Below, piece after piece: positions 1,455 to 44,552 of a stretch of DNA of 64,000 nucleotides. Under the pieces are notes generated by a model. That model did not search any database. It saw nothing but the letters and a program-made list of their open reading frames with translations, and was not told the origin of the DNA. Each line of letters opens with the position of its first letter. The stretch's first letter is position 1. This DNA is from an uncultured Candidatus Saccharibacteria bacterium (lineage in GTDB: Bacteria > Patescibacteriota > Minisyncoccia > Phycocordibacterales > UBA2100): contig CAYIDD010000002.1 in assembly GCA_964362175.1 (NCBI GenBank), positions 45,939 through 109,938 of the forward strand. The letters are read 5' to 3'. Made by a program: the position numbers and the translations under genes.

Positions 1455-4400
1455 TTACTTTTCCATTTTGTACTCTTCCCACGGCTTCGTCTTTAATCCA
1501 TCGCCCTCGCCCGTGGCCCGGCCACGGGCGAGGCTTTTTTGCTCCGCGAGCGCCATCACGAATGCTTCGGCGAGCTGCCGATTTGTGAGAAGCGGAATAT
1601 TCATGTCGACCGCCTTGCGACGGATGGTGAAGCCATCGGTGCTCTCGCTCGCCCCCGGACAGGTGGGGATATTGATGATGAGATCAAGGGCCCCCGCATT
1701 CAGAATGGTTGCAACGTTCGGCTCTTTTTTTGTGCTTATTTTGTAGACCTTCTCGCACGCGACATCGTTCTCTCGAAGGAAATCTGCCGTGTGCTCCGTG
1801 GCGATGAGGTTAAACCTCATCGTGGAGAGGGTTTTCATCGTGGATAGCAACTTGACCTTGCTCTCTTCACCCCCGACTGAGACCAAAATGTTCTTCTTCG
1901 GCAGTCGGAAACCGGCGGCCATCATTGATTTCAGGAGTGCTTCGGAATATGAGTCCCCGAAACAGGCGACCTCACCCGTCGAAGCCATCTCGACATTTGA
2001 GCGTGGGTCGGCTCCTTTGATGCGACTGTAGGAAAATTGCGGCGACTTCACGGCGACAAGGTCGAGCTCCAGAGTCCGGTAATTGCCGGAAATATCTTTG
2101 CCGAGCATTGCCCAAACAGCTTTTTCAATGAGGTTATAGCCTGTTACCTTGGAAACGAACGGGAAGCTGCGCGAGGCGCGTACATTGCACTCGATCACCT
2201 GAAGATTGTTGTCTTTCGCGATGAATTGGATGTTAAAGGGTCCGGTGATGTTGAGCGCCTTTACTATTAATTTCGTGATATGTTTTGCCCTTCGGGTGGT
2301 CTCGATGTAGGTTCTCTGTGGCGGCAACACGACCGTCGCATCGCCGGAGTGCGTCCCTGCATTTTCAACGTGCTCGGTGATCGCATAGAGTTTTAGGTTC
2401 CCTTTTGCAGCCACTCCGTCAATCTCGATCTCGCGCGCGTTCTCGATGAATTTTGATATGACCACCGGATGGTCGGAGGAGACATCGGCCGCGCGCTTCA
2501 AGAATTGGAGAAGGGAAGCCTCATCATACGCGATCTTCATCGCCGCACCTGAGAGCACGTATGAGGGGCGTACGAGGACCGGATAGCCCATTTTTGCCGC
2601 TATCTTCGCGGCGTCCGCATGCGTCCGCACCTCCGACCACGCAGGCTGATCCACGCCGAGCGTGTCGAGAAGCTTTGAGAACACGTGACGATCTTCAGCT
2701 CTGTCGATATCCCTTGGATCCGTTCCGAGGATCCTCACTTTTCTTTTGTGCAGTTTGAGCGCCAGGTTGTTCGGGATCTGCCCGCCGGTCGAGACGATAA
2801 CGCCTTTCGGGTCTTCAAATTCGATGATGTCGAGTACGCGTTCAAGCGAGAGTTCGTCAAAGTAGAGTCTGTCGGACATGTCGTAGTCCGTAGAAACAGT
2901 TTCCGGATTCGAGTTGATCATTATCGTGCCGAAGCCTTCGTGCTCAAGTGTTTTTAAGGCTTGTACACAGGACCAGTCGAACTCTACTGAGGAGCCGATC
3001 GCGTACGGACCACTCCCGAGTACGACCACTTGATCTTTCCCGCGGGAGATATCATTTTCTGTGCCGTGGTAGGTCATGTAGAGATAGTTGGTCTGTGCGG
3101 GGAATTCACCCGCCAGAGTATCGATCTGTTTGACCACCGGACGTACCTTGAGGCGGATACGCGCAGAGCGTATGTCTGTTTCCGTTTGCCCCTTCGTGTT
3201 CCCTATCTGAGCGTCGGAAAAGCCGGCTTTTTTTGCCCGCCGCATCGTATCCACAGTGAGCTTTGAGCGCTGAAGTTCCTTTTCGACCTCAATAATATTT
3301 TGCATTTTGGCAAGGAACCACGGGTCGATCTTTGAGAGTGCGCGTATCTTTTCGATAGACTCGCCCTCCCGAAACGCCTGCGCAAGCGCAAAGATGCGGC
3401 GTGTGGTCGGCTCCTGTATCTCCTTTAGGCAATCGGACACTTCGAAATCTTTTTTATTTTTCTGCGCCGTAAAACCGAGAGCGCCGATATTGAGCATACG
3501 CAGCGCCTTTTGAAGAGTTTCTTCGAACGAGCGCCCGATCGCCATCACTTCGCCGACACTTTTCATTTCAGTACCGATACAGGATGCCGCATTCTCGAAT
3601 TTTGCGAGATCCCACCGTGGCATTTTGAGCACAAGATAATCAAGCGCGGGCTCGAAACAGGCGGTAGTTTTTCCCGTGACAGAATTTCTGAGGTCAGTGA
3701 GTAGGTGTCCGAGTGCGAGTTTGGCAGCTACGAATGCGAGCGGATAGCCAGTGGCTTTTGAGGCAAGTGCCGATGAGCGTGAGAGACGCGCATTCACTTC
3801 AATGACGCGGTAGTCACTACTCCCCGGATGAAGCGCATACTGAATGTTGCACTCGCCGACGATGCCGAGGTGGCGGATAGTCTTGATCGCGATCTCGCGA
3901 AGGTTGTGATACTCGGCATTCGAGAGCGTCTGCGATGGTGCAACGACGATAGATTCACCCGTATGAATGCCCATAGGGTCAATATTTTCCATGTTGCAGA
4001 CCGTGATGCAGTTGTCCGCACGATCACGGACCACCTCATATTCGATCTCCTTCCATCCGCCAAGATATTCCTCTATCAGCACTTGCGAGGTTGAGCGGAA
4101 AACTTCGGGAAGCTTTGCCGAAAGTTCTGCAGCGTTTTTCACCATGCCCGATCCCTCACCGCCGAGCGCGAATCCGGAGCGCATCATGACGGGGTAGCCG
4201 ATCTCCTGCGCGGCTTGAAGTGCTTCGGCGACAGTGGTGGTGGCATGGCTGCGGGCGGTTTTTACGCCTATCTCATCCAAGCGCTTTACAAACAGATCAC
4301 GATCTTCAGTATCGCGGATCGTGGAAACGGGAGTACCGAGAACGCGCACATTGTATTTTTTTAGCACGCCGCTTTTTTCGAGCGAGAGACCGAGGTTGAG

Positions 4401-7100: not shown

Positions 7101-7535
7101 ATGTATTGGACCTATGTACAAATACTCACGTTTCTCTCTATCCTCGCGGTTATATTTGGCGGGGGATATGTAGCATATCGAAACGCGACAACGCCGGAAA
7201 CAATGGATCTGTATGCTGCCGCAGACCTTGATCTTTCCCGGTTTCCCCCCACCGTCTGCAGGACCTCATGGAGTTCATTTGAGGCAGCCGGAAGCGCGGT
7301 TGCGTATATTGTGGAAGGTAAATTTCGTATGGATGTGCAAATGGTCGCGGGAAAAGATACGGCCGTCTACCATATCGTAAAGCTCCCCGGCAAAGCTATA
7401 GAGGCTTCGGGCAAGCGAAATAACGTTGAGAATATTGATCCCGCAGATATTGTATTACCGGAAGCGGAATTACGTACCGTTGCACAATGTGATCCGTGGT
7501 GGTTCCCCAACCGGTCTTTTTTCAACGTCTTGTGA
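7101..7535 (+). CDS. Hypothetical membrane-anchored protein
   Basis: 144 aa with an N-terminal TM helix (ILTFLSILAVIFGGGYVAY) and no recognisable domain. It has its own TATACT -10 box 7 nt upstream. Confidence 0.5.
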   Translation: MYWTYVQILTFLSILAVIFGGGYVAYRNATTPETMDLYAAADLDLSRFPPTVCRTSWSSFEAAGSAVAYIVEGKFRMDVQMVAGKDTAVYHIVKLPGKAIEASGKRNNVENIDPADIVLPEAELRTVAQCDPWWFPNRSFFNVL

Positions 7536-9658: not shown

Positions 9659-9733
9659 GGGCCAGTAGTTCAGTGGTAGAATGCCTCATTTGCAATGAGG
9701 AGGTCCGGGGTTCGATCCCCCGCTGGTCCACCA
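9659..9733 (+). tRNA. tRNA-Ala (anticodon UGC), CCA encoded
   Basis: Cloverleaf: acceptor GGGCCAG/CTGGTCC with the G3:U70 alanine identity pair. Anticodon stem CCTCA/TGAGG with loop TTTGCAA gives anticodon TGC. T-arm CGGGG-TTCGATC-CCCCG. Confidence 0.9.
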
Positions 9734-11991
9734 TGCATATCGTTGTTCCTATAAAAAACCTTCACGAACACATCGCTACGTTAGCACGGACCACGCCAAA
9801 AAAGATCGCGCTTGTCGCGACGGACGAACGGGGGACTACCACCGAGAAGATCACGTATGCCGACTTGCTCGAAAAGGTAGAAGCGGCGGCGGCGGAGTTG
9901 AGAGATCTCGGTTTGCAAAAGGGGGATCGTATCGCGCTCGCATTCCGTAATTCGCCCGCACTTCTTATATGGAGCTGGGCCGCATGGGCGATGGGCATAG
10001 TGACGGTGCCCATGGACACAAAGCGGGACACTCCGGAACTCTACGCGTATAAGATCAATCTCAATAAAGCGAAGGTGTTGATCCTTGAGCGGGGGATACA
10101 GGTAGATAAACTACCTGGCGTTCGTGTCAAAGTACATCTGGAATTCCCTTCCGAAGGAGGGTCCGCCTCTGGCGGAAAAGGTGCACCGGTTGCATGGGAG
10201 AAGGGGCTCTCGCATCAATCGCTCGTTCTCTTTACCTCCGGCACGACCGGCCATCCGAAGGGGGCGATGCTCTCCCTCGAGAATCTCATCGTCAATGCGA
10301 GCGGTATCTGTGAATGGTTACGGTTCACCGAGAATGATGTATTTCTCGTAAATCTGCCCCTGCACCACATCAACTCCACCACGTTCTGCCTCTCGACGCT
10401 CCTTGCGGGCGGTACGATCGCCATACCGCCGCAGTATTCGAATTCGCATTTTTGGGAGCAGAGCGGCAAAACGGGCGCTACCGTTACGTCTGTGGTGCAA
10501 TCGATCGTATTTGATCAGCTGAAGCGCGAAAAGGAGTTCGCGGCCGGGAAAAAACATGTAAAACTGAATAAAATACAAATAGGCTCTGCTCCGGTACTCG
10601 CACAGTCGGTGCAGGAATTCCAGAAGAAATTTGGCATCCGTCTCTATCAAGGCTACGGACAAACGGAGACGGCGCTTCGGGTGACCGGCGTTCCAATGGA
10701 CATTTCGGAGGAGCTCCACGAAAGACTTGTGGAGGAAAATTCCATCGGGACACCTATGCAATGGGCCGATCTGCAGGTATCGGACGATGAGGGAAAGCTA
10801 CTCGACGAGGGAGAGGAGGGGGAACTCATCGTCAAAGGTCCCGCGATCATGGAAGGGTACCTCGGACGCGAACCGGCGTTCCGCAACGACTACTTCCTTA
10901 CGGGGGACATCGGCTACTACCGTGTTATCGAGGGCCGGAAATATTTTTATCTCAAAGGCCGCAAACGGGAAATCATCATCAAGGGTGGTATCAACGTCTC
11001 GCCAGTCGCTGTCGAAAATGCTCTCAAGAAAATATCAGGAGATATAGATCAGGTACACGTTGTCCCCGTGCCTGATGAACGATATGGCGAGGAGGCTGGC
11101 GCCGTCATCTCATGGAAAACCGGTATAGATGAAATGCGCGCGAAACGGTACCTCAAGAGCACACTACTCCTCGGTACGCGATACCTCAGTGCATACGAGA
11201 CGCCCAAGTACATAACATCACTTTCAATAAGCGAGCTTCCGATGACCTCCACCGGAAAAGTGCAACGCGGCGTTCTGAAAGGCACCATTCCGTATGAAAA
11301 ATTCGAGTCAATATTCGGTCTCCTCAAGACACCTAAGTACCGCTTTACTGTGTTGCACCGCTATTCACGATGGACGGAGCCCTCATATGAACTACACAAA
11401 CGTTGCTGGGGGGATATTGCCGGCACGAGGGAGGAGTATGAAAAGAATATCCCCAAACAGCTCATTATCCTTGCGGCAAGGCCGGACGACACGATCGTCG
11501 GACAGATCGCCGTCGTTCGTACGAGCCTCCCGGAAAAGGAGCTTCTTCAAAAAAAATATGATGAATTGATCCCAGAAGCATCTGATCGTGAGGGAAATGC
11601 GCTTGTATGCGTTTCCATTTGCAACGCTGAATACACGCCAAGACCCATTCCTTCGGTGAATTTAATCCCGAAACCCGATGAGGTCCGCGCATATCTTTTA
11701 GGCGGGAACGACCCCGTCATGCGATTCCACGAAAAGCCGAAAGGAGGTCTTGCCGAGGGTGCAAAGCTTGTCGACGTCATTGAGAGTGGCCGGCCCAAAG
11801 ACAAAAGCTCGCTCGGATACAACATGCTTCTCAAATATCCGGAACCGAAAAATATTGTCATCCATACGCACGCACCCGTCCCCAACCAGCTCATTGAGAT
11901 GGTGCTTCTTCTTGCGGGCGATCTCGGTATCAAAAATGTGTACGCCTACTCGCGTCCTGGCGGCTTGGCGTCGTATGTATCCACAGGTTGA
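9733..11991 (+). CDS. AMP-forming acyl-CoA synthetase/ligase fused to an extra C-terminal domain of about 220 aa with no recognised family
   Basis: Motifs TSGTTGHPKG, YGQTE, GEL..KG.....GY and C-terminal TGKVQR of adenylate-forming enzymes end near residue 530. A further ~220 residues follow. The ATG at 9733 shares its A with the tRNA CCA; the track start at 9673 is a GTG inside the tRNA. Confidence 0.8.
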   Translation: MHIVVPIKNLHEHIATLARTTPKKIALVATDERGTTTEKITYADLLEKVEAAAAELRDLGLQKGDRIALAFRNSPALLIWSWAAWAMGIVTVPMDTKRDTPELYAYKINLNKAKVLILERGIQVDKLPGVRVKVHLEFPSEGGSASGGKGAPVAWEKGLSHQSLVLFTSGTTGHPKGAMLSLENLIVNASGICEWLRFTENDVFLVNLPLHHINSTTFCLSTLLAGGTIAIPPQYSNSHFWEQSGKTGATVTSVVQSIVFDQLKREKEFAAGKKHVKLNKIQIGSAPVLAQSVQEFQKKFGIRLYQGYGQTETALRVTGVPMDISEELHERLVEENSIGTPMQWADLQVSDDEGKLLDEGEEGELIVKGPAIMEGYLGREPAFRNDYFLTGDIGYYRVIEGRKYFYLKGRKREIIIKGGINVSPVAVENALKKISGDIDQVHVVPVPDERYGEEAGAVISWKTGIDEMRAKRYLKSTLLLGTRYLSAYETPKYITSLSISELPMTSTGKVQRGVLKGTIPYEKFESIFGLLKTPKYRFTVLHRYSRWTEPSYELHKRCWGDIAGTREEYEKNIPKQLIILAARPDDTIVGQIAVVRTSLPEKELLQKKYDELIPEASDREGNALVCVSICNAEYTPRPIPSVNLIPKPDEVRAYLLGGNDPVMRFHEKPKGGLAEGAKLVDVIESGRPKDKSSLGYNMLLKYPEPKNIVIHTHAPVPNQLIEMVLLLAGDLGIKNVYAYSRPGGLASYVSTG
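10156..10181 (+). repeat. Palindromic mini-element copy 1, in-frame in acs (encodes EGGSASGGKG)
   Basis: GGAGGG-TCCGCC-tct-GGCGGA-AAAGG. It matches 24 of 26 nt of the nspC copy. Confidence 0.7.
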
Positions 11992-28202: not shown

Positions 28203-29378
28203 ATGTCAAACGAGCAAACCGTTGGTCAGTTCGCCAAAGCTCATCCGGAAATACGGACACCGTACTATCTCATAGACGAATCACTACTTCTGAAGAATCT
28301 TGAAAAGATCAAATACGTACGCGAAAAAAGTGGTGCGAGGTCGGTTATGGCACTCAAATGTTTCTCGACATGGTCAGTCTTCCCGCTCATGAGCAAATAC
28401 ATGGACGGGACCACGTCGAGTGCGCTTTATGAGGCACGACTCGGGCATGAGAAATTCGGAGGGGAGACACAGGCGTACAGTGTGGCGTGGTCGCAGAAAG
28501 ATATCGATGAAGTAAAAACATTCGCCGACAAGATCATATTCAACTCCATTTCGCAGCTGGACCGTTTCTACGACGAGGTGTCCTCCGGAGGAGGATCCGC
28601 CTCCGGCGGAAAAGGCATGAACATCGGCTTGCGGGCCAATCCCGGTATCAGTTACTCCCACTTCGATCTCGCTGATCCCGCTCGCAAGGCAAGCCGACTC
28701 GGTGTGAGAGACATCGCCGCAGTCGAAAAAGTTGCCGACAAAATACGGGGCCTGATGTTCCACGTAAACTGCGAGAACACGGATTTCGATGCTTTCTCGA
28801 AGATAGTCGACCAGATAGGTGAGAAGTACGGGTCGCTTCTCAAAAAAATGGAATGGGTGAGCCTCGGAGGCGGTATAGCGTTTACAAATGAAGGATACCC
28901 GCTCGACAAATTTTGCGAACGACTGAAAAAATTTGCGAACGACTACGACGTGCAGGTATATCTCGAGCCGGGTGAAGCTTCGGTCCTCGGTTCGGGTTTC
29001 TTGGTGACGCAAGTTCTTGATGTTGTGAAGAACGAGGCCGACATCGCCATTATCAATGCTGCCGTCGAGACTCACATGCTCGACAATCTCGTCTATCATG
29101 AAGATGCAACGCTCGCCAACCCCCAAAAGGGTCCCCACCGCTTCATGGTCGCCGGTAACACGTGTCTCGCGGGCGACGTATGGGGGACCTATGACTTGCC
29201 CGAACCGTTGAAGGTCGGTGATTATGTCGTGTTCGACAATGCGGCGCGCTATACAATGGTCAAGATGAGCTGGTTCAACGGTGTGCAGATGCCGAGTATC
29301 GTCGTGAAGCGGCTCGATGGAAAAGTTGACGTGGTGCGGGAATTTACATACGATGACTTCCGTAAAAGCCTGTCGTAA
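28203..29378 (+). CDS. nspC: Carboxynorspermidine/carboxyspermidine decarboxylase
   Basis: N-terminus TPYYLIDESLLLKNLEKIKYV...ALKCFSTWSVF; PLP-dependent fold III decarboxylase, 391 aa. Confidence 0.8.
   Translation: MSNEQTVGQFAKAHPEIRTPYYLIDESLLLKNLEKIKYVREKSGARSVMALKCFSTWSVFPLMSKYMDGTTSSALYEARLGHEKFGGETQAYSVAWSQKDIDEVKTFADKIIFNSISQLDRFYDEVSSGGGSASGGKGMNIGLRANPGISYSHFDLADPARKASRLGVRDIAAVEKVADKIRGLMFHVNCENTDFDAFSKIVDQIGEKYGSLLKKMEWVSLGGGIAFTNEGYPLDKFCERLKKFANDYDVQVYLEPGEASVLGSGFLVTQVLDVVKNEADIAIINAAVETHMLDNLVYHEDATLANPQKGPHRFMVAGNTCLAGDVWGTYDLPEPLKVGDYVVFDNAARYTMVKMSWFNGVQMPSIVVKRLDGKVDVVREFTYDDFRKSLS
28581..28615 (+). repeat. Palindromic mini-element copy 2, in-frame in nspC (encodes SSGGGSASGGKG)
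   Basis: TCCTCC-gga-GGAGGA-TCCGCC-tcc-GGCGGA-AAAGG, two tandem perfect 6-bp hairpins. Confidence 0.7.
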
Positions 29379-42665: not shown

Positions 42666-44552
42666 ATGGCAAAAATACTCGGCATAGACCTCGGTACGAC
42701 CAACTCCGCGATGGCGGTCGTCAAGGGCGGCGAGCCGGAGATCATAGAGAATGCGGAGGGTGCGCGCACGACGCCTTCGACCGTTGCCATTTCCAAGACC
42801 AACGAGCGTTTGGTCGGTCTTTTGGCGAAGCGCCAGGGCGTCACGAACCCAAAGAACACCGTATACCAGATAAAGCGCTTTATCGGTCATAATTTTGACG
42901 AAGCGGCGGTCGGGAAAGATCGTGCGGCGGTGCCGTTTGAGACACAAAAATCCGCAAATGGCGGGATCGAGGTGAAAATGGGGGACAAATGGCACCGACC
43001 CGAGGAAATTTCGGCGATGATATTACAGAAATTGAAGCAGGATGCGGAAGCCCGGTTGGGGGAGACGATAACGGAGGCTGTCATCACCGTTCCGGCCTAT
43101 TTTAACGACTCCCAGCGTCAGGCGACAAAAGACGCGGGCAAGATCGCGGGCTTGGACGTAAAGCGCATCATCAACGAGCCGACCGCCGCCGCGCTTGCCT
43201 ATGGCTTCAACAAAAAGAAGAACGAGAAAATCGCGGTCTTCGATTTTGGCGGCGGCACCTTCGATGTTTCCATACTCGAGGTGGGGGATGATGTGATCGA
43301 AGTTCGCTCGACCGATGGCGACGCACACTTGGGCGGCAGGGACATCGACCAGAAAATAATGGAATGGCTCGCGGAACAATTCAAGAAAGAATCGGGCATC
43401 GATGTGCGCAAAGATCCATTGGCGCGCCAGCGACTCGACGAGGCCGCTGAAAAAGCGAAGATCGAGCTTTCGAGCGCCGTTGATACCGAAGTCAATATTC
43501 CGTTCATCACGTCGACCGACGCGGGACCTCAGCACCTACTTATCAAAATGAGCCGTGCGAAGTTGGAGGAGCTCTCAAATGAGTTCGTAGAACGGGCGAT
43601 GACAATTACCAAGCGCGCCATCGAAGCATCTCCGTTCAAAGTGGACGACCTCAACGAAGTCATTCTTGTCGGCGGACAAACACGCATGCCAGCCCTGCAG
43701 CAAGCGGTCGAAAAATTCTTCGGCAAGAAGCCCAACATGAGCGTGAATCCGGATGAGGTGGTCGCTATCGGCGCGGCAATTCAGGGTGGTATTCTCCAGG
43801 GTGACGTGAAGGATGTGCTCTTGCTTGATGTCATCCCGCTTTCTCTCGGCATCGAGACTATGGGCGGAGTTGCCACCAAACTCATTGAACGTAACACGAC
43901 TATTCCCACATCTCGCTCACAGACATTCTCGACCGCCTCTGACAATCAACCATCGGTCGAAATACATGTCGTACAAGGCGAACGTCCGATGGCAGGAGAC
44001 AACAAATCGCTCGGCCGCTTCAATCTCGACGGCATCCCGCCGGCGCCGCGCGGTACGCCGCAAATAGAGGTTTCCTTTGATATCGACGCCAACGGCATTC
44101 TCTCCGTGAAAGCAAAGGACAAGTCGACCAACAAGGAGCAATCCATCCGCATCGAAGCGACATCCGGTTTGTCGGACGTCGAGGTGGAAAAGATGCGCAA
44201 GGACGCCGAGGCAAATGCCGACGCAGACCAAAAGAAGAAAGAGCTTGTCGAGGCACACAATGCCGCCGATCAGGTGCTTTATGCGGCAGAAAAAGCGCTG
44301 AAGGAACACGGGGACAAGGTGGGCGAAGACATAAAAAAGAATGTGCAGGAGAAGCTCGATGCCCTCAAAGCCGCGCGCGGAAGTGGCGATGTCGCGGCCA
44401 TCAAGTCTGCCGCCGAGGCACTCTCAACGGCCATGAGCACCATCGGGGAGGCGATGTCGAAAAATCCTCCACCGTCCGCCGAAGGCGGATCCTCCTCTGG
44501 AGGAAAGGACGACCAAAAACCGCCGGAGAGTGGCGACGCCGATAAGAAGTAA
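42666..44552 (+). CDS. dnaK: Chaperone DnaK (Hsp70)
   Basis: [26 protein letters not shown] and substrate-binding domain. The G/S-rich C-terminal tail contains a copy of the palindromic mini-element. Confidence 0.95.
44475..44508 (+). repeat. Palindromic mini-element copy 3, in-frame in the dnaK C-terminal tail (encodes [12 protein letters not shown])
   Basis: TCCGCC-gaa-GGCGGA-TCCTCC-tct-GGAGGA-AAGG. Same two hairpin modules in the opposite order. Confidence 0.6.

Follow-up and report, generated by a model that had tools for sequence, protein, structure and literature searches.

A 30-bp double-hairpin palindrome in three unrelated genes of a Saccharibacteria contig and in genomes of many uncultured bacteria

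Palindromic inserts in three genes of one contig

A 64,000-nt stretch from an uncultured Candidatus Saccharibacteria bacterium (assembly GCA_964362175.1, contig CAYIDD010000002.1, positions 45,939 to 109,938), denoted here as the window, harbors three copies of a short palindromic DNA element, each in frame within a long open reading frame (ORF). Its source is a metagenome-assembled genome (MAG) of the Patescibacteria, or Candidate Phyla Radiation (CPR), and its nearest relatives are Kaiserbacteria. The three host genes encode a class I adenylate-forming (AMP-binding) enzyme, the carboxynorspermidine decarboxylase NspC, and DnaK. A preliminary description, made from the letters alone, had assigned these sites to a family of tandem-hairpin mini-elements placed in frame in unrelated genes, reminiscent of Rickettsia palindromic elements (RPEs). 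This proposal is supported in substance: all sequences quoted in it are present where it had located them, and the in-frame placement is confirmed for all three copies. The boundaries of the unit and one gene name require revision, and the spread across many phyla had been underestimated. Host genes and element copies are:

9733-11991, + strand: host gene 1, class I adenylate-forming (AMP-binding) enzyme, 752 aa, Pfam PF00501 and PF13193
10147-10176: decayed element copy in host gene 1, CCTTCC-GAA-GGAGGG (10147-10161, imperfect) and TCCGCC-TCT-GGCGGA (10162-10176, perfect), translated PSEGGSASGG
28203-29378, + strand: host gene 2, carboxynorspermidine decarboxylase, nspC, 391 aa (homologues 381 aa), Pfam PF00278 and PF02784
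28581-28610: element copy in nspC, TCCTCC-GGA-GGAGGA (28581-28595) and TCCGCC-TCC-GGCGGA (28596-28610), translated SSGGGSASGG
42666-44552, + strand: host gene 3, dnaK, 628 aa from MAKILGID, Pfam HSP70 (813.6 bits)
44475-44504: element copy in the dnaK C-terminal tail, TCCGCC-GAA-GGCGGA (44475-44489) and TCCTCC-TCT-GGAGGA (44490-44504)

The AMP-binding enzyme and DnaK are 100% identical to the NCBI MAG proteins P0121 and P0241, respectively, and the identity of nspC is also the source's own name for protein P0001. The first gene had been called acs, a name that is not retained here, as acetyl-CoA synthetase is not demonstrated; its product is a class I AMP-binding enzyme with an uncharacterised C-terminal extension. 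This extension of ~210-230 aa (11350-11988, ~aa 540-752) has no Pfam match and is conserved in Kaiserbacteria homologues of 740-760 aa. A tRNA-Ala(TGC) at 9659-9730 abuts the annotated start of the gene at 9733, and a mechanically called ORF from 9673 overlaps the tRNA.

The repeating unit is a 30-nt double hairpin that consists of two abutted 15-nt modules, TCC[G/T]CC-NNN-GG[C/A]GGA. A 26-nt core shared by 10156-10181 and 28590-28615 had been taken as the unit before. The similarity stands, with 2 of the 26 positions differing, but the core, made up of one and a half modules and flanking host sequence, misses the true borders: its 5' GGAGGR derives from the upstream module, of which it forms the 3' stem, and its 3' AAAGG belongs to the host. 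Tandem modules, already recognized in nspC and dnaK, are likewise present in the AMP-binding enzyme gene, where the upstream one is degenerate. TCCGCC-N3-GGCGGA occurs three times and TCCTCC-N3-GGAGGA twice in the window, compared to 0.02 and 0.00 expected from dinucleotide-preserving shuffles; these five modules are among a total of 31 window hairpins with a 6-bp stem and a 3-nt loop. The decayed copy shows three mismatches to the family consensus in a relaxed scan that gave no match in 20 codon-shuffled windows.

The insert borders become apparent from comparison with relatives. Exactly ten residues, SSGGGSASGG, are missing from each of the 120 closest NspC homologues (62-85% identity). At the DNA level, the site reads GTG|CAG GGA ATG and GTG|AAG GGT ATG in two related loci (L125/L126) and GTG[30 nt]AAA GGC ATG in the window. 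From this empty-site DNA it follows that the insert comprises exactly 28581-28610, with no target-site duplication; the AAAGG 3' of it is ancestral and encodes Lys-Gly. A clean gain of ten residues is also seen in L17 of a Kaiserbacteria locus (L120), which reads GAATTCGTT[E]AAATAA, with [E] denoting the element, compared to GAATTCGTG|AAATAA in the window. Filled/empty pairs of AlaRS and DnaJ, matched by synteny, contain additional small indels. The insertions are lineage-specific, a point that the preliminary description had proposed to check: none of 120 homologues of the AMP-binding enzyme carries the insert, which sits at GAA TTC|AAA GGT, where relatives have GAA TTC|ACT CCA... and a variable loop length, and the insert of the window DnaK is missing in ~110 of 120 Kaiserbacteria DnaK tails, with a few having it at other tail positions.

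Distribution and DNA nature of the element

The notion of a family is borne out by a collection-wide pattern scan with TCCKCCNNNGGMGGRTCCKCCNNNGGMGGA, which covered one genome per species (185,579 species); counts given below are among the matches listed. At least 119 loci with at least 128 copies were found, with a calculated chance expectation of <2 (~43 bits, 1.2e12 positions). According to record titles, ~61 of the listed loci derive from CPR bacteria of many classes, 11 from Omnitrophota, 11 from groups of the Planctomycetes-Verrucomicrobia-Chlamydiae (PVC) superphylum (Kiritimatiellae, Lentisphaerae, Planctomycetes, Verrucomicrobiota), 11 from 'uncultured Gammaproteobacteria', and 12 are titled only 'bacterium'; the remaining ones include Ignavibacteriota/Bacteroidota, Elusimicrobia, Chloroflexota, Firmicutes-type, Margulisbacteria, and Firestonebacteria. 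Five copies reside in bona fide type A sorting domains of the type IX secretion system (T9SS; TIGR04183, 31.8-55.2 bits with the element removed), hence the non-CPR matches are not mis-binned CPR DNA. IMG/VR yielded two matches, and INPHARED phages and PLSDB plasmids none, in a search whose sensitivity may be lowered by the BLAST low-complexity filter; a phage or plasmid vector was rejected on these grounds. In a Kiritimatiellae MAG, the 30-mer lies inside a ~180-nt direct repeat (L005, 4569-4752 and 6390-6572; copies 1,820 nt apart) that is also present in inverted form on another contig (L061, ~7325).

All 119 listed loci are MAGs, and no match exists in plasmid or phage records of cultured organisms. 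Moreover, the element contains a BamHI site and resembles synthetic linkers; full-text literature searches for GGCGGATCCGCC and GGSASGG retrieved only cloning primers and synthetic linkers, and keyword searches, including CPR and palindromes, retrieved no prior description of the element. A sequencing, library or assembly artefact confined to MAGs might be suspected from these observations. However, the flanks are contiguous in-frame halves of the same gene, and the data stem from many laboratories and assemblers, including Nanopore-based bins with contigs of 0.7-1.6 Mb (L014, L036, L085, L089). The same protein is found in independent NCBI, ENA and Logan assemblies, and there are lineage-specific subfamilies as well as mutationally decayed copies, which makes an artefact very improbable.

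Including its flanks, the consensus reads t-T-y | TCCGCC-r-r-A-GGCGGA-TCCGCC-T-y-y-GGCGGA | r-A-a and is centred on GGATCC. The stems are fixed by the search pattern, so that the non-stem positions are the informative ones: position 9 is A in 95% and position 22 is T in 96% of the copies. Kaiserbacteria mostly carry a variant with one TCCTCC...GGAGGA module. When folded as single-stranded DNA, a canonical copy whose loops are complementary is predicted to form one 16-bp hairpin (-16.9 kcal/mol, z -6), and the heterodimeric nspC and dnaK copies of the window two tandem 6-bp hairpins (-11.2 kcal/mol each; z -3.0 and -3.7, respectively). One long hairpin backed by loop covariation was rejected, as the two variable loop dinucleotides show no significant covariation (23 perfect pairs vs 17 +/- 3.7 expected). 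Modules are nearly always paired, with 22 of 286 being single and most of these having a degenerate partner; a longer parent element bracketed by half-modules was discarded for this reason.

On each strand, the 5' module exhibits an RRA loop closed by a C-G pair, a GNA-type triloop of the kind known as unusually stable in DNA, and the 3' module a TYY loop. This symmetry may bear on the recognition of single-stranded forms. At one locus (L033, 7381-7480), ~4.5 abutted modules split the anticodon loop of a sequence that resembles the 5' half of a tRNA-Ser, with acceptor, D arm, and anticodon stem. A tRNA origin, to which this array might point, was rejected; ARAGORN calls no tRNA there. No Rfam family matches the element, the only Rfam match in the window being the tRNA-Ala at 9659-9730.

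The feature is a DNA entity, not a peptide motif, because its codons are invariant where the synonymous background varies, copies occur in other frames and in non-coding DNA, and the GC content of the host loci ranges from 33 to 70%. Kaiserbacteria DnaK tails, collected by protein similarity alone, illustrate this. A scattered minority carry SA[EGQ]GGSSSGG, at several tail positions. In the four genomes with DNA, the element is preceded by CCG, CCG, CAG, and ATG and followed by AAG, CAA, CAA, and AAT; variation is limited to the two loop codons, the eight stem codons being the same throughout. Among invariant Ser/Ala/Gly columns of the same four genes, 17 of 127 (13%) share one codon, giving p ~1e-7 for the element. 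The decapeptide S[AS]xGGS[AS]xGG occurs 139 times in ~1 Mb of fetched DNA; 137 of these instances use the canonical palindromic codons, and the remaining two are single-base variants. The same peptide encoded by unrelated DNA in relatives, which the preliminary description had named as an outcome speaking against a family, did not occur. In addition, 43 of 128 copies lie outside frame 0 (defined below) or outside a long ORF.

These data also bear on the idea that Gly/Ser low-complexity linkers arose independently by slippage and became alike through codon bias. The peptide is indeed of low complexity, and this genome commonly uses the codons TCC, GCC, GGC, and GGA. The shuffles, the codon statistics, and the out-of-frame copies contradict such a coincidence, to which next to no weight is assigned. 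DnaK proteins also contain other lineage-specific inserts unrelated to the element, namely PAVAKAKADEEAMAK in the tails of P0242-P0244, P0250, P0321, and P0328, and DAVKTPDGSSTGQGK at ~codon 107 of L121 DnaK, in the nucleotide-binding domain.

Reading frame, target sites, and fate of the copies

In 85 of 128 cases, the copy is located within an ORF of >=100 aa and reads S-A-x-G-G-S-A-x-G-G (frame 0). Another 22 are in the other two frames (PPxADPPxAE or RRRRIRLRRK), many of them a few codons from the ORF start, and 21 are without a long spanning ORF. Each module is its own reverse complement, so either orientation yields the same peptide class. Loops that produce a stop codon in frame 0 (TGA, TAG) are confined to copies outside intact frame-0 ORFs; in one of them (L025, 1239-1268), inserted at NPF|NP of a T9SS domain, the first loop codon is TGA, which would truncate the protein before the secretion signal. 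Frame-0 copies are enriched at ORF ends (22 of 53 within 40 aa vs 11.6 expected).

Hosts with the frame kept comprise NspC, DnaK, AMP-ligase, L17, AlaRS, DnaJ, and T9SS domains. In an AlphaFold (AF2) model of NspC (predicted local distance difference test score, pLDDT, 82.6), the insert forms the surface loop that connects helix 116-127 to strand 140-145; the pLDDT dips there, and the loop would be situated on the barrel's non-catalytic face. In DnaJ, the Gly/Phe-rich linker holds copies in two distant CPR lineages, two in Kaiserbacteria (L120, 12250-12345) and one in Saccharibacteria (L083, 2919). With a TTC/TTT loop, the element itself encodes a G/F-like sequence, SAxGGSAFGG. The strong frame-0 excess suggests purifying selection acting on random insertions, and the coding copies are probably tolerated passengers, not adaptations.

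A function at the RNA or protein level, either as a structured mRNA hairpin (translational pausing, mRNA stability) or as a recruited flexible Gly/Ser linker, would agree with the stability of the predicted hairpins, with the predominance of the Gly/Ser frame, and with the location of copies at places that make use of flexibility (loops, tails, the DnaJ G/F region). It is, however, at odds with the copies in other frames and in non-coding DNA, with decay that includes stem-breaking changes (AMP-binding enzyme copy, L120 DnaJ copies, S to P in P0245), with the lack of the insert in the same enzymes of close relatives, and with the copy that adds a stop codon. Such a function is quite unlikely. 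The guide or target site and the structured mRNA motif considered in the preliminary description are not supported either, although a DNA site in a wider sense is kept as a minor alternative below.

The flanks display a symmetric bias: T stands at position -2 in 83% of the copies and A at position +32 in 77%, both together in 79 of 125. In conserved contexts, the flanking codons are ancestral, as in NPF|NPST and V.F|[DN] of T9SS domains (five domains from five MAGs, split at these two sites), V|K of NspC and L17, and EF|K of AMP-ligase. For this reason, TTY|RAN is regarded as a target preference, and the element proper as 30 bp in length. Flanking direct repeats measure 0-1 nt in 103 of 133 copies. 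Repeats of >=6 nt border 10 of 133 copies (0.6 expected); they are mostly 6-8 nt long, and nearly all belong to period-7 tandem arrays. There, non-coding or out-of-frame copies are situated mid-array with units on both sides, and the units (e.g. GAGAACC, AGGATTT, AAAAGTC, GAAGATT) differ per genome. These arrays could reflect a 7-bp duplication with repeated insertion/excision, insertion into microsatellites, or hairpin-induced slippage. The loci with copies in period-7 arrays are:

L041, ~3353-3410
L042, ~1170-1227
L044
L071, ~2444-2515
L072
L073, ~7350-7407
L092
L118, both copies

The scarless insertion without target duplication would also be expected if the element were filler DNA in double-strand-break repair, i.e. 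a self-complementary oligonucleotide, or a 15-nt hairpin per broken end, ligated at blunt TTY|RAN breaks, the dimer being a repair scar. The dimer of self-complementary modules, whose variable dinucleotides lack covariation as if the halves were made independently, the symmetric target half-sites, and the rarity of single modules fit this idea. It leaves unexplained why the same 12 stem bases are present in unrelated phyla, and we know of no source for such an oligonucleotide. Moreover, whole-element signatures are common to copies within a genome, inverted rare variants included, which points to copying of copies. Repair filler is thus considered unlikely. Quantitatively, identity is seen in 6 of 44 pairs from one genome whose flanks are unrelated, compared to 2.8% of between-genome pairs (calculated p ~0.002), and rare variants in opposite orientation are among these identical pairs.

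Insertion has taken place repeatedly and independently, at no fewer than four positions in Kaiserbacteria DnaK tails and at different T9SS positions in different lineages. Density is patchy, with five copies in 22 kb of L120, three in the 64-kb window, and none in the 78 kb of L125, L126, L128, and L129 together. Decayed copies are also recognizable: leaving out the copy that brought each locus into the set, extra copies with 0, 1, 2, 3, 4, and 5 mismatches number 14, 15, 6, 2, 1, and 1, respectively, and a reversed-sequence null gave none. Exact empty alleles are not on record; the nspC junction of the window is missing from JGI metagenomes, and the L031 junction was found once, in filled form.

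Host benefit, or biased uptake and recombination, would account for the spread of the sequence if it were a functional DNA site bound or processed by a conserved protein, e.g. a DNA-uptake signal of these competence-dependent bacteria with small genomes, or a nucleoid or segregation site, with coding copies persisting where the peptide is harmless. The consensus is near-invariant across phyla, as are parS-type sites. The 30-bp palindrome is symmetric, with four GGCGGA hexamers and a symmetric flank preference, its stems are intact at homologous T9SS sites with diverged flanks, and copies reside in both coding and non-coding DNA. Against this, copies arise as 30-bp insertions and not by point mutation of existing sequence, they are patchy even among close relatives (0 in 78 kb vs 5 in 22 kb), they decay, and one of them truncates its host gene. 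To our knowledge, no cognate protein for the palindrome has been described. A functional site is rated as rather improbable, albeit less so than repair filler.

Proposed mobility and comparison with known systems

The three window sites are best read as copies of a 30-bp non-autonomous mobile DNA palindrome, to which a probability of roughly 0.6 is assigned. As the data above show, an exact 30-bp segment is inserted without target-site duplication, with a preference for T-T-Y|R-A-N junctions, and this has happened repeatedly and independently, so that one gene can carry the insert at different positions depending on the lineage. Insertion in phase 0, in either orientation, adds Ser-Ala/Ser-x-Gly-Gly twice, a flexible decapeptide tolerated in loops and tails; copies in other phases (PPxADPPxAE, RRRRIRLRRK) are rare, and stop-loop copies are confined to sites outside intact ORFs or truncate the host. 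Inserted copies subsequently decay through point mutation. Mobilization is supposed to occur in trans by an enzyme that recognizes hairpin or cruciform DNA. A single-strand transposase of the HUH type (IS200/RAYT-like; RAYT, REP-associated tyrosine transposase; REP, repetitive extragenic palindromic), which generates no target-site duplication, would be the most natural, putative candidate. The near-identical consensus across phyla may result from horizontal spread of the element, of its mobilizer, or of both.

One locus (L125, 2994-3692, - strand) encodes a 232-aa protein with the HUH motif NHFHFV and a faint Y1_Tnp (IS200/RAYT-type) Pfam match, and a 39%-identical homologue is encoded in Doudnabacteria (L044, 591-998). 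Several observations weigh against mobility. No mobilizing enzyme was found, and ORF clustering over the loci revealed no recurring non-housekeeping family. No association of an HUH enzyme with the element is seen: the HUH/Y1-like genes of L125 and L044 are not flanked by it, and none exists in the 64-kb window. Presence/absence polymorphism within a population was not observed. The matches listed all come from MAGs, and the element is absent from cultured genomes and from plasmid or phage records in the databases searched. A near-invariant consensus over >10 phyla is unusual for a selfish repeat; REP families, for instance, are usually lineage-specific. Homologous T9SS sites have intact stems and flanks diverged at synonymous positions, which could indicate selection on the palindrome and not recent insertion. 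Finally, the ~8% of copies in period-7 arrays are not explained by a mobile palindrome.

A further-reaching interpretation is tentative and less likely than not. The palindrome would then rank among the smallest bacterial mobile DNA elements, moved by a horizontally shared or possibly universal machinery that recognizes hairpins or cruciforms, integrating scarlessly at TTY|RAN, and active in >10 phyla of mostly uncultured, small-genome bacteria. It would act as a natural linker-scanning mutagen that adds 10-residue Gly/Ser loops, and its mobilizer would be a new sequence-specific, duplication-free insertion enzyme. If mobility is true, a single 30-bp sequence moves through genes of much of the uncultured bacterial world, among them genes for ribosomal proteins, chaperones, and tRNA synthetases in streamlined CPR genomes. 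Scarless insertion of a defined 30-mer with a 6-bp target preference would possibly involve a new insertion enzyme of biotechnological interest. The inserts would provide flexible loops for protein evolution to build on, a marker of horizontal exchange between phyla sharing habitats, and a clean case of selection filtering insertions by reading frame; they could also confound alignment-based phylogenomics and the annotation of CPR proteins.

Among known systems, the RPEs, reportedly described in 2000 by Ogata and coworkers as elements of ~100-150 bp confined to one genus, share with the element that short palindromic repeats are found in frame in unrelated, often essential genes and add a surface peptide with the function kept. 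The hosts listed above as keeping the frame likewise stay intact around an in-frame palindromic insert. In contrast to RPEs, which are not self-complementary at codon resolution, the element measures only 30 bp, encodes the same peptide on both strands, and shows one consensus over many phyla. It is set apart from RPE-1 to RPE-8 by length and host range (CPR, Omnitrophota, PVC and Fibrobacteres-Chlorobi-Bacteroidetes (FCB) groups, and others).

REPs and the derived bacterial interspersed mosaic elements (BIMEs) and REPINs, mobilized by RAYT tyrosine (HUH) enzymes, are non-autonomous, GC-rich hairpins of 20-40 bp, often in inverted pairs; they possess an unpaired tag (GTAG or CGTC), lie mainly outside genes, and form lineage-specific families with a flanked RAYT gene (PMC3733652). 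The element resembles them in its GC-rich hairpins, which often form inverted pairs, its non-autonomous nature, and the absence of target duplication, and REPs are occasionally intragenic as well. However, 85 of 128 element copies lie in frame inside ORFs >=100 aa, unlike the mainly extragenic REPs, and GTAG and CGTC are found within 8 nt of 3 and 4 of 125 copies, respectively, which is chance level. Assignment to the REP/RAYT group was rejected, as the tags are lacking and the Y1-like genes of L125 and L044 are unflanked by the element and absent from the 64-kb window.

A MITE (a transposable element of miniature size with inverted repeats) derived from a DDE transposase was dismissed on account of the missing target duplication at clean insertions (nspC, L17, T9SS domains) and the prevailing 0-1 nt flanking repeats. 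IS200/IS605 (HUH) elements also insert without target duplication and contain hairpins. Insertion 3' of a short specific target on one strand would not be expected to give the symmetric flank bias observed here (both sides in 79 of 125 copies), unless an asymmetry is masked by the palindrome. CRISPR or other interspaced arrays do not apply, as the copies are solitary and dispersed, with a run of abutted modules at one locus only (L033).

Neisseria DNA uptake sequences (DUS) and Pasteurellaceae uptake signal sequences (USS) are family-specific, have cores of 10-12 nt, arise by point mutation, and occur about once per kb. Like them, the element is a short over-represented motif that occurs inside as well as outside coding DNA, with an excess in reading frames whose peptides do no harm. 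It differs in arriving as a 30-bp insertion, in a density of 0 to ~1 per 4-20 kb, and in its cross-phylum consensus. [quoted passage not shown]

The GC clusters of yeast var1 and the Allomyces double-hairpin elements (DHEs), the latter said to have been described by Paquin and coworkers in 2000, are ~30-80 bp long, GC-rich, mobile, and patchy, with one or two hairpins, and are located in intergenic and occasionally in coding DNA, as is the element. They are organellar and species-specific and often show short target duplications or AT-rich targets, whereas the element belongs to bacteria, spans phyla, and leaves no scar at TTY|RAN. In function it resembles RPEs, intragenic REPs, and the mitochondrial GC clusters and double-hairpin elements, and it most aptly counts as a new member of the palindromic mini-elements, one that is extremely small and unusually widespread.

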